A stretch of DNA of 64,000 nucleotides from assembly GCF_001677475.2 (NCBI RefSeq), contig NZ_CP015229.1; one strand, given 5' to 3'. This document shows, in pieces, positions 35,801 to 38,800 of this stretch. A program made the position numbers. Source of the DNA: Escherichia coli. Its GTDB lineage: Bacteria > Pseudomonadota > Gammaproteobacteria > Enterobacterales > Enterobacteriaceae. The stretch's first letter is position 1, and the number at the start of each line of letters is the position of its first letter.

Positions 35801-38800
35801 AGAAAGAACGCACCAATGACAGCGCCTTCCAGGTCATCGTTACGCCAGACTGGAGTTGTCATGCTGCCACACCTCTGATACGAGAACGATAGCTGGGCCA
35901 GTTGAACGACAACCAGTTGCGCCCCCCGTCTGTGATCCTGTCGGCAATGCGGGGGCTGATAAACGCCCACAACTCTTCCGGTGAAAGGTTGCTGATCAGA
36001 ATGGTGGGCAGGATACTTTCGTACCGGGCATTGATAATTTCCTGCAAAATAGCCATTTCAGCCGCGCTGCCAAACTGAACACCAACTTCGTCGATGATCA
36101 GCAAATCCATTGACGCATAATGCTCAATAACTTCATCCGCTGTTTTTTCGCTATCATTCCGCCAGCAGTTTTTCACAGCACGGGTAAGGCGCATCACGTC
36201 GGTGATCTCCACGCTGGCCAGATGATTACGGATGATGTGTTTTGCCATTGATACCGCCAGATGATTTTTCCCGGTACCGCAACTGCCAGTCATAACAAGA
36301 CTGGTGCCGTTCTCCAGCATATCTGGCCAGTTCTCCGCATAGCGGCGACAGGCTGCAAGATTTCTGGCTGCGTCAGGATTAACCTCCAGATAGTTATCAA
36401 ACTCACAGTCCCGAAAACGCAGGGCAATTCCGGCGTTATCAGTCAGCTCTTCCGCCTTGAGGGACGACAGCTCCATGGTCAAATCGTTGGCCTCAGCGAT
36501 CAAGCAGTCAGGGCAGCATGAAATTTTTTCTCTGTCCTCGCCATTACGATCGCTCCACACCAGTATATGCGTACTGTATTTACCGTGTTTTTCGCAATAT
36601 CCACGACCATCACGCATCAGGCAGGAACGATAAGGCCATGGCTTTTCGCCCTTCTGAGCGAATGCAATCTCTGCCCGTAACTCATCCATTCGCGCCTGTA
36701 GTCTTTTTTGTTGTTCACGCAGGTTAAACGTCATCATCGCTGTCACCTCAGAATGTCAATTTGTCACTGGATTTACCGAATTTGTCAGACATGGCTCCCA
36801 GGCCAGACAGGACATCGACCTGTCGCTGTCGCCCACCTCCGGGAGCGGCTGGTTGTTGCCAGAAGTCTTCGAAGTGACGATCGGGGCCAAAGAACGTCGC
36901 TGCCTGCTTCACGAACTGTGTGCCGGTATTTCCTGTAGCACGTACCCAGGCGGCATAGCGTTTCACGCCATCAAGCATGGTTTCGGGTGTCACACCTTCC
37001 CTGATACGGGCTTTCCAGGCTTTGAAAGCAGCTGACTTGGAATTGCCACCAGCACGTTTGGGATATTCCTGCCAGGCCTGTTCAAATTCCGGTGAATATT
37101 CCTGTCGGGCAGAACGTGCTGGTGCAGACGCGTCAGCGGATGCACCAATAGTGTTTTTACTCTCTGTAGTATTCTCTGAAGTAATCTCTGTTGTATTCTC
37201 TGTAAGATCGAAATTGGTTTTCCCTTCTCCGCGGCGAGGGGTTTCCCGTGTCCGCGGTGAAGGCTTTCCCTCCTCCGCGAAATTGGGTTTTACAGTTTCC
37301 CGAAAACGGGTTTCCCCATTTCGGGAAAACTGATTGTTTTCATTGATAATTTCATTAAGGCGCTCACAATCTATACGGTAGAACATTTTGTGCTCAAGAC
37401 GCTTGTTGGTTTCAACCAAAATGCCTCTGGACACAAGATGCTTACGCGCTACAGCCTGTTGTTCAAATGTAAGTCCGGTTTCGTGTTGTATCTCTTCACG
37501 CGTTTTATGTACGCCTTCCGCTGCATGTGCTTTATCCTGCCAGTAAAAAATCTGACCAAAGAAAATAACAGCGTGCGGACTTCCCATGTATTTAACGAGC
37601 CCAGGGTAATAAGCAACCGGATGTCCAAAATCGAGCAGAAGATCAGACGGACGCATAGCCACCTCCCAGGCGTTTAAACATTTTTCCGGACTGAAACGCC
37701 ACCAGCGGATAACTCAGGGTATGAGTACGTCCCTGAACCTGGCAGACAACCTTCTGGCTTTCTGTATTGACCAGGCAAACCCGCAGAACGTGACCGTTGC
37801 TGGTGGTGAACCACTGCCCCACACGGGGGCAACGGTTGTATCGGTGATACAGGGAATTAACGACGCGGCGAATCATGGGCGCGCCTCCCATTGATTACGG
37901 CGGAAAGCAGTGTGAGTCAGGCTGGTTTCGGCCTCATGGAATGCTTCAATGCAGCTCTCGTAGTACCGCATTGTGCGCAGACTTAACCCAAGCTGAAGCA
38001 TCATCAGACCATCAAGAGTTATGTAATAACCACGCAAAGAATCGCCATAAAGGTGATAAGTGCCGGGTATGAAATTACGGGTGAAAAACTCGCGCGAGCA
38101 GTTCAGATACTCGATTTTGTCGACGATATTCTGGTGCATGCGCTTGAAGTGGCAGGCAACATGCAGAGAGAAAATAACGGCCTTGCCGTTGACGGTCTCA
38201 ATTTTGAGGAATGGGTGAGTAGTGGTGGTAGTCATGGTGACAGCCCCGGTAGTCAGTTTGTTAGAAAACTCACCACCAAGGCTTTCCACGACCTTATAGG
38301 TGGTGAGACGTACAGGGGTGGAAATACCGGAGACTACCGAACCCGGCCCGACCGAAGTCGGCCCTGTACGCCCCACCATAATTTGGGCGTAGCAATGCTC
38401 ATGACACGAAAAAACCGCATGAGCGCGGTTATGCTCAGTAATCAATTTCGGGTTTCCACGCCCGGCATCCACTTTACAAGATGCCTGAATAGTGTAACGT
38501 CCCGAAATTAAGGAATCAATGTTTTGATAAAATTCAGCGATTAGACGCTTCTTTTCTACCCATATTAACTTTGAACAAGAGCTCCATACGACGAGTCCAG
38601 ATACCACGTTCTTTGAGTTGTGCTCTGGCTTCTTCGCGTTCAGATACGGATGTTCTGACAATACGATTTCCCGCCAGATTGCGGCGATATTCTCCAAACG
38701 CGACTGACTGAAGGTATGAATCTGAGCTTTTGTACTGATAGATGGCTCTTCGAAGGCTGTTTTTGTATTCCTTAGGTATATGTCCGAGATCGGCAAAGAG

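Follow-up and report, generated by a model that had tools for sequence, protein, structure and literature searches.

The replication origin of phage lambda, whose plan has been described (PMC7466680), lies inside the initiator gene of the rightward early operon, between the segments coding for the N- and C-domains, and consists of four to five direct repeats spaced 20-24 bp with internal CCC...GGG dyads, an AT-rich tract downstream of the repeats and then a palindrome. Phage P22, whose record annotates an origin by similarity to lambda, carries iterons in its initiator gene, then a 14-mer tandem repeat (2.6 copies), then the gene of a phage DnaB-family helicase (genes 18 and 12). We analysed a 64 kb stretch of Escherichia coli DNA (the window; all coordinates are window positions) and studied an iteron array inside the 'O-like' initiator gene of its Shiga-toxin (Stx) prophage. 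The features listed for lambda are all found at this locus, on the minus strand. From the comparison of sequences we estimate, with a probability of about three in four, that the Stx prophage has its replication origin in this segment, laid out on the lambda/P22 plan and served by different proteins.

The plan resembles that of P22 even more than that of lambda, as the initiator gene is followed by a gene for a phage DnaB-type helicase. The lambdoid architecture put forward in the original prediction is supported by this layout and by the arrays of relatives described below. The proteins differ, as had also been predicted. The initiator stands outside the lambda O family (hhalign probability 1%, no Pfam hit), and the P-type loader of lambda is replaced by a DnaC-like loader and a DnaB-like helicase of the phage's own. 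The N-domain of P22 gp18 is of the lambda O type (hhalign probability 7% against the window family, covering the helix-turn-helix only); P22 has no DnaC-like gene, and its short repeat unit is ACAAAAGACAATAT, not the ACAGAGAWTAC found here.

In RepA_N plasmids, too, the iterons lie within the rep gene, flanked by the coding parts of an N-terminal DNA-binding domain and of a C-domain that is host-specific. At RK2 oriV and at oriC, initiator-binding repeats lie beside an AT-rich region of short tandem repeats about one helical turn apart, and the window likewise pairs initiator repeats with a short-repeat AT-rich region. It differs from oriC and the iteron plasmids in that its motif is unlike GATCTnTTnTTTT, that no DnaA box (TTWTNCACA) lies in or next to the origin (none in the initiator gene, and the nearest, at 36169, is at chance level) and that the element is inside coding sequence.

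Iteron array inside the initiator gene

The initiator gene and the elements within it are as follows, in gene orientation.
36748-37656, minus strand: initiator ('O-like') gene, ATG start at 37656 in RefSeq
37321-37656, minus strand: segment coding for the N-terminal winged-helix domain (amino acids 1-114 counted from the alternative GTG)
37333-37372: upstream AT-rich flank, GC 0.30, encoding the last helix of the N-domain
37332-37310, minus strand: iteron U1, CAGTTTTCCCGAAATGGGGAAAC
37309-37287, minus strand: iteron U2, CCGTTTTCGGGAAACTGTAAAAC
37286-37264, minus strand: iteron U3, CCAATTTCGCGGAGGAGGGAAAG
37263-37241, minus strand: iteron U4, CCTTCACCGCGGACACGGGAAAC
37240-37218, minus strand: iteron U5, CCCTCGCCGCGGAGAAGGGAAAA
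37217-37209, minus strand: half-unit CCAATTTCG, identical to the start of U3
37205-37217, minus strand: sixth partial unit and junction to the 12-mers, holding a single GATC at 37206-37209
37157-37204, minus strand: 12-mer array, four 12-bp units, ACAGAGAATAC, ACAGAGATTAC, TCAGAGAATAC and ACAGAGAGTAA, GC 0.33 (Tandem Repeats Finder, TRF; nhmmer E=8.5e-11)
37120-37147: imperfect palindrome TGGTGCAGACGC / GCGGATGCACCA just past the 12-mer array (inverted repeat I9, 83% complementary)
36748-37156, minus strand: segment coding for the exchangeable C-terminal domain, no Pfam family

Five tandem repeats of about 23 bp had been predicted, and five gapless 23-bp units were indeed found at 37218-37332, read on the gene (minus) strand and followed by the sixth half-unit. 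Their consensus on the gene strand, CCnTtttCGCGgAnnnGGGAAAc, is the reverse complement of the predicted core GGTTTCCC...TCCGCG. Pairwise identity among the units ranges from 11 to 18 of 23 positions. U3-U5 form a tight set, for which TRF gives 2.7 copies and a second repeat search 3, while U1 and U2 are divergent yet stay in the 23-bp register. U1 and U2 contain palindromes of the form CCC-N6-GGG in place of the CCGCGG-centred ones of U3-U5; the dyads of the array (inverted repeats I3, I4 and I8) are 79-87% complementary. At lag 23 the array has a self-match of 0.636. In 5000 shuffles this value was 0.254 (sd 0.044) and never reached that of the array (z=8.7), which is the highest lag-23 value when 12,776 windows across the 64 kb are compared. 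GGGAAAVCC occurs four times in the array and once elsewhere in the window. The iterons have a GC content of 0.56, with the least stable DNA of the gene on both sides.

The array occupies codons 111-149 of the 304-codon open reading frame (ORF), between the winged-helix N-domain and the C-domain, and thus lies inside the O-like gene as predicted. The reading frame changes from each unit to the next, all three frames being used, and the encoded peptide, QFSRNGETRFRETVKPNFAEEGKPSPRTRETPRRGEGKT, is non-repetitive. Since 23 is not a multiple of 3, the array does not produce a peptide repeat and is not a protein repeat.

The sole GATC, at 37206-37209, marks the exact point where the last partial iteron gives way to the first 12-mer. 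The junction, TTCGATC(T/C)T-ACAGAG, is kept in enteric relatives.

Initiator protein

The initiator is named 'LvrA C-terminal domain-related protein' in RefSeq, where it is 909 nt long and starts at the ATG at 37656; the ORF list places the start at a GTG at 37662 (36748-37662, 304 codons). The protein matches PHROG 270, 'replication initiation protein' (E=2.7e-67), and no Pfam (E<=0.01), NCBIfam or PDB sequence. Its N-domain matches no Pfam family at E<=1, none of 21 relatives matched the lambda O family model, and no Pfam model for the N-domain superfamily was found among the 21 members tested. At 50% clustering, the N-domain profile nevertheless retrieves 15,548 cluster representatives (E<=1e-3).

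An AlphaFold2 model of the N-terminal 125 residues, computed from a 21-sequence alignment (pLDDT 82), has a winged-helix fold up to residue 114 and is disordered from residue 116. The iterons thus begin at the start of a disordered linker. The best structural neighbours found by Foldseek are the N-domains of RepA_N-type plasmid initiators (staphylococcal RepA, such as that of pSK41) and of DnaD (5kbj, 4pql, 4pt7 and 2v79). These matches are weak (TM 0.47-0.53, E 3e-3 to 5e-2), are interleaved with winged-helix regulators of the ArsR/MarR type and have no counterpart at the sequence level. The N-terminal winged helix is presumed to be the iteron-binding domain, and the C-terminal domain is presumed to recruit the loader and the helicase.

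Among the best 150 N-domain relatives, 33 are longer than 400 aa, and most of these have two tandem copies of the winged helix. The TEIT footprint of the 12-mers, described below, is nearly absent from them (3/33). These long relatives, mostly with two winged helices, may be a different kind of replicon initiator.

Conservation and module exchange

Several Stx1 and Stx2 phages have the initiator gene at 97% identity; among them is Stx2_14040 (LC567818), the reference phage of the Eru7 replication type, which carries it at 96%. In an O121 strain the gene comes after Rha and Ash genes, while the early region that precedes the replication module in the window is a different one (Cro-like, antirepressor, C4/isrK). 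The N-domain and origin part is present at >=99% identity in 100 of 5426 complete E. coli genomes. A partial match to 37150-37662, at 95-99% identity, occurs in 1415 of the same 5426 genomes, the whole segment only in the 100; what the 1415 share is presumably the 12-mer end together with the beginning of the C-domain.

More distant relatives, 27-58% identical, were found with the N-terminal part by tblastn in phages of Burkholderia, Klebsiella, Aggregatibacter, Pasteurella and Acinetobacter, and also of Salmonella, Pseudomonas, Vibrio and Synechococcus. In all 6 annotated phages inspected, units spaced by about 23 bp stand at the same position in the gene, each phage with its own sequence (TRF calls a 23-bp array in 3 of the 6), and a 12-13-bp tandem of the form ACAGAGATTAC directly follows. 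A protein-based search gave 80 viral contigs with 51 distinct versions, of which 50 have both array and motif; the remaining one (L055) ends about 25 nt past the N-domain match. Arrays with a period of 21-24 bp occupy the same position in homologues from E. coli, Burkholderia, Acinetobacter, Pasteurellaceae, Bacillota and Cyanobacteria. The repeats are thus present in homologous initiator genes; their absence would have counted against the original prediction. Relatives also occur on natural plasmids. The ydaU/oriJ locus of the Rac prophage of K-12 was considered as a tested member of the family and set aside, as it has neither array nor motif.

Alignment of 35 near-identical relatives reveals 0-4 variable sites per 30 nt across the N-domain, the iterons and the first 12-mers. 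Leftwards from about 37182 the number rises to about 20 per 30 nt, the jump falling at about 37182-37153. Phages such as phiP27, SfV and cdtI share only the 3' part of the gene, that is, the C-domain. The jump in variability and this 3'-only sharing show that the N-domain and the iterons are inherited together and that C-domains are exchanged at the 12-mers. This exchange of N-domain and iterons against C-domain follows the same logic as in lambdoid O genes. The copy number of the 12-mer differs, from 3.2 to 4.7, among relatives whose N-domains are 99% identical (L024, L041 and L049); the array thus expands and contracts in frame.

The ACAGAGAWTAC motif across phyla

The 12-mer units have the consensus ACAGAGAWTAC. 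In the window this motif forms a cluster only at 37157-37204, in the array that follows the iterons in gene orientation. We scanned sequences for two adjacent units (23-nt exact match). At least 120 viral contigs carry them. In 76 of the 80 contigs read, the motif lies in the middle of an ORF (codons 120-205 of about 230-375), the ORF being short or cut by the contig end in the remaining 4. Only half of the motif-bearing ORFs were matched by the first N-domain profile. Their N-terminal parts fall into at least 6 clusters, each with its own repeats directly upstream, and the C-domains joined to the motif include a lambda-O-like one and that of the window. With one genome per species, 112 exact 23-nt matches were obtained, against about 0.1 expected (an estimate). 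About 37 of the 80 matches listed of these 112 are from Bacillota and 32 from Gammaproteobacteria, and the rest include Alphaproteobacteria, Cyanobacteria and Nitrospinota. The broader N-domain profile matches the ORFs that hold 82 of the 112. Macrococcus, Bacillus, Sporosarcina, Chlorogloeopsis and Marinomonas are among the genera that show the same succession: a winged helix, then iterons with a period of 21-24, the motif and a variable C-domain. The motif-bearing genes of these genera have host-like base composition.

The motif DNA is usually read as T-E-I/N-T (TENT or TEIT in the 12-mers of the window), and otherwise as YRDY or QRL, depending on the frame. It is translated as IDYYRDYYRDY in a Thermoanaerobacter initiator and as TENNYRDYHRDY in a Lachnospiraceae initiator; in Pasteurellaceae phages its period is 13 bp and it is read as TLDYNTRLH. 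A soil metagenome contig (L326) holds three perfect copies of ACAGAGACTAC with an 11-bp period, read in three frames, and another contig (L327) four copies of the motif spaced 11, 10 and 12 bp. Peptide footprints of the motif are present in 73 of 117 single-domain relatives chosen by their N-domain alone, against 1 of 117 shuffled controls. In 20 of the 73, footprints of more than one frame (TEIT, RDY/LDY, QRL/TRL) occur within 34 residues, a few of these pairings being distant and possibly incidental. Since the motif is translated in all three frames, it is the DNA, with units 10-13 bp apart, and not the peptide that is conserved.

Several of these relatives have features of their own. One from a Nitrospinota metagenome-assembled genome (MAG; L256) has the same layout of iterons and 12-mers, and its C-domain is DnaA_N (PF11638, E=3.4e-12). 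The DnaA_N domain binds helicase. In L326 (1408-1494 and beyond), the initiator is followed by a DnaB helicase gene with an intein that contains a LAGLIDADG endonuclease domain. Two of the genome matches, from an archaeal MAG (L231) and from Nostocales (L236), were discarded as unrelated proteins with RDY/GDY repeats.

In the searchable literature, which is thin on subscription journals so that earlier descriptions are possible, we came across neither the motif nor an origin assigned to this initiator family; a string search for the 11-mer returned only unrelated primers. We propose that the motif array is the constant core of this class of origins and, at the same time, a crossover joint for swapping modules. 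We suggest more tentatively, as an idea that somewhat less than even odds would suit, that ACAGAGAWTAC is an undescribed cross-phylum cis-element: a sequence-specific unwinding or helicase-entry site that doubles as the crossover joint and would be recognised by a factor common to all systems, either a conserved surface of the winged-helix initiator superfamily or the DnaB-family helicase/primase machinery.

An alternative is that the motif array is kept mainly as a recombination joint, with no initiation role of its own, unwinding requiring only AT-richness. The mapping of the mosaic junction to the array, the joining of at least 6 N-domain clusters to several C-domains by one and the same array, the same reading frame of the motif in 104 of the 112 genome matches and the different copy numbers among 99% identical relatives would all be expected from such a joint. 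What it leaves unexplained is the exact identity of the DNA across Bacillota, Cyanobacteria and Proteobacteria, in genes of host-like composition, and the unit spacings of 10, 11 or 13 bp, which break the frame; moreover, the two roles do not exclude each other. We therefore consider it unlikely, though the best placed of the alternatives. A crossover role in itself fits the data, because the motif lies at the mosaic junction and its period is usually a multiple of three. Recombination alone fails on the cross-phylum identity and the frame-breaking spacings, so we regard the joint as an additional function of an origin element and not as an alternative to it.

Location of the proposed unwinding element

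AT-rich DNA flanks the iterons on both sides. Upstream in gene orientation, 37320-37359 has the lowest GC content of the gene (0.275). A second and longer AT-rich stretch, 37140-37219 (GC 0.33-0.35), contains the 12-bp tandem repeat (3.7 copies by TRF), and the 12-mer array belongs to the longest low-stability stretch of the gene. The original prediction had an AT-rich segment following the repeats, by which the upstream flank was most likely meant. Such a tract does follow them on the plus strand, at 37320-37359, but the conserved one is on the other side, at 37157-37204, and both stretches lie outside the 37211-37330 given for array and tract together.

The Burkholderia phage BcepIL02 is informative in this respect, as its gene has a GC content of 64%. 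The flank before its iterons has 65% GC, whereas its 12-mer zone has 46%, with 31% GC at third codon positions against 83% for the gene. In BcepIL02 only the 12-mer side is kept AT-rich, and in lambda and P22 the AT-rich element comes after the iterons; we therefore place the unwinding element at 37157-37204 and not at 37333-37372. The 12-mer array would thus be the counterpart of the AT-rich region of lambda, a part that the plus-strand tract (37331-37360), being upstream in gene orientation and 65% GC in the Burkholderia relative, does not fit, and it is most likely the DNA-unwinding and helicase-entry element that we propose. The imperfect palindrome at 37120-37147 follows; relatives have GTCAGG..CCTGAC at roughly its place, and lambda has GTCAGAG..CTCTGAC.

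It could still be argued that the iterons bind the initiator but that opening takes place in the upstream flank, 37333-37372, the 12-mers doing something else. The lowest GC of the gene is there (0.275 at 37320-37359), and the two sides are about equal in stability. Yet this flank has to encode the conserved last helix of the N-domain, it does not stay AT-rich in the Burkholderia relative as the 12-mer side does, and it is on the wrong side of the iterons by comparison with lambda and P22. We hold opening in this flank to be improbable, and somewhat more so than a pure recombination joint.

The window differs from lambda in that its AT-rich region is a tandem 12-mer. Homology between the two was considered, as AAAAGATTATTCGTCAGAGAATTC appears similar by eye, and rejected on the nhmmer score of the 12-mer profile in lambda (E=63); only the positional resemblance was kept. 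Scans of the origin region gave no known RNA family, and promoters and terminators at chance level only.

Aaphi23, a relative of the window in its N-domain, shares P22 sequence just downstream of the repeats. P22 (L211, 2955-2985) and Aaphi23 (L003, about 1925-1955) have a near-identical ATACAAATACCCCC(C)TTACCCCC, which directly follows the short tandem repeats of each, despite N-domains of different families.

Replication operon and prophage context

The operon is read on the minus strand inside the prophage. Besides the initiator gene, the early region and its surroundings comprise, in the direction of transcription, the following.
40317-40583: Cro-like gene, in the upstream part of the early region
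39386-40240: antirepressor gene
between the antirepressor and initiator genes: small RNAs, then an 82-codon ORF
35859-36746, minus strand: DnaC/IstB-like AAA+ helicase-loader gene (PF01695, E=2.1e-15; PHROG 50)
34471-35862, minus strand: DnaB-family replicative helicase gene (DnaB_C PF03796, E=5.7e-73; PF00772, E=2.4e-5)
33870-34217: Q gene
28793-29752, minus strand: Shiga-toxin A-like ORF of 319 codons (ribosome-inactivating-protein family), preceded by tRNA-Met and tRNA-Arg genes, all within 28793-30096

The order initiator, DnaC-like, DnaB-like is accompanied by stop and start codons that abut or overlap: the loader gene starts 1-10 nt past the stop codon of the initiator gene, and the ATG of the helicase gene overlaps the stop codon of the loader gene (ATGA). 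The loader reaches 131.9 bits with the NCBIfam DnaC model (NF005931), below the curated cut-off of 357, while it passes that of Pfam IstB_IS21 (57.3, cut-off 24.1); we therefore call it DnaC-like and not DnaC itself. The helicase, named 'replicative DNA helicase' in RefSeq (1392 nt), stays under the cut-offs of both equivalog models, TIGR00665 and TIGR03600. Past Q come a DNA methylase gene, the tRNA genes and the ORF of the ribosome-inactivating-protein family. The presence of this Shiga-toxin A-like ORF assigns the origin to a Stx-converting prophage.

Other features of the window are recorded here for completeness. Between the antirepressor gene and the initiator operon, C4 antisense RNA (RF01695, 81.9 bits) and isrK (RF01394, 53.4 bits) are adjacent at 38296-38484 on the minus strand, and an ORF with a ProQ/FinO domain (38534-38926) lies directly upstream of the pair. 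A low-GC island (about 33%) at 31732-33839, plus strand, is wedged between Q and the block of methylase, tRNA and toxin genes; it holds three ORFs of 350, 130 and about 221 codons on the opposite strand, for which no convincing Pfam or PADLOC family was found, and may represent a moron or a defence cassette. Strong periodicity occurs at only one other place in the window, in a 24-bp and 12-bp tandem repeat at 48297-48385. This repeat lies outside the prophage, in the AIDA/pertactin autotransporter gene at 47359-52056 (1565 codons), and has a period divisible by 3, as expected of repetition in the protein.

Discussion

An iteron origin inside an O-like gene is in itself ordinary; the part worth following is the motif that is conserved independently of the frame. 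Several observations weigh against reading the segment as the prophage origin. U1 and U2 differ from U3-U5, so that the five units need not be equivalent sites. Among near-identical relatives the iterons vary at 3-4 sites per 30 nt and the N-domain at 0-3; the iterons are no better conserved than the flanking coding sequence, and this comparison is uninformative. The low-stability stretch is no extreme, ranking only in the top 4-5% of the window, and the 12-mer profile has no significant match in lambda. Occurrence on a natural plasmid could not be taken as proof of replication, as the Arsenophonus plasmid concerned also has several other rep genes, and in the searchable literature we found no member of the N-domain family with an experimentally mapped origin.

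A further alternative is that the arrays bind the initiator for copy control or autoregulation, the true origin being elsewhere in the prophage. Plasmid iterons also act in handcuffing and autorepression. On the other hand, the prophage part of the window holds no second periodic array or motif cluster, the layout matches origins annotated or studied in P22 and lambda, and it is conserved beside helicase and loader genes in all relatives examined. We give this explanation very little weight. That the repeats have no cis role and are a by-product of a low-complexity protein linker is scarcely tenable, for although the region encodes a disordered polar linker in which the 12-bp unit gives TENT or TEIT, a 23-bp period cannot give a peptide repeat, the relatives retain the period and not the peptide, and the motif persists whichever of the three frames it is read in, as well as at synonymous positions, where it runs against host codon bias.

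We therefore keep the origin on the lambda/P22 plan, from which we infer initiator binding, unwinding and helicase recruitment as follows. Dimers of the initiator would bind the five iterons, spaced by 23 bp, through the N-terminal winged helix, in the linker-coding part of their own gene. The nucleoprotein complex would then destabilise the adjacent ACAGAGAWTAC array, immediately downstream in the direction of transcription, and the exchangeable C-domain would recruit to this opened DNA the DnaC-like loader and the DnaB-like helicase of the phage, after which host primase and polymerase would take over. Such a role of the C-domain is suggested indirectly by its being the exchangeable part and by the DnaA_N domain of the Nitrospinota relative. 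The 12-mer array may double as an in-frame crossover point between a module of N-domain and iterons and a module of C-domain.

The production of Stx depends on phage DNA replication (PMC7466680). The Eru types of Stx phages are defined by two genes next to cI; the description of these types reports nothing known about their replication proteins, including those of Eru7, the commonest European type, and does not mention iterons or origins (PMC8951638), which are not discussed in the Eru papers either. The Eru7 module now gains a concrete candidate for its origin, initiator, loader and helicase. It follows the lambda/P22 plan although Eru phages are described as non-lambdoid. The iterons vary and are predictable from the gene. 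The DNA of the adjoining 11-12-bp motif is identical in organisms as far apart as Macrococcus, E. coli and cyanobacteria. The motif would thus offer a precise handle on how an initiator complex opens DNA and passes it to the helicase, and it could serve as a simple sequence marker by which to locate phage origins, both in genomes and in metagenomes.

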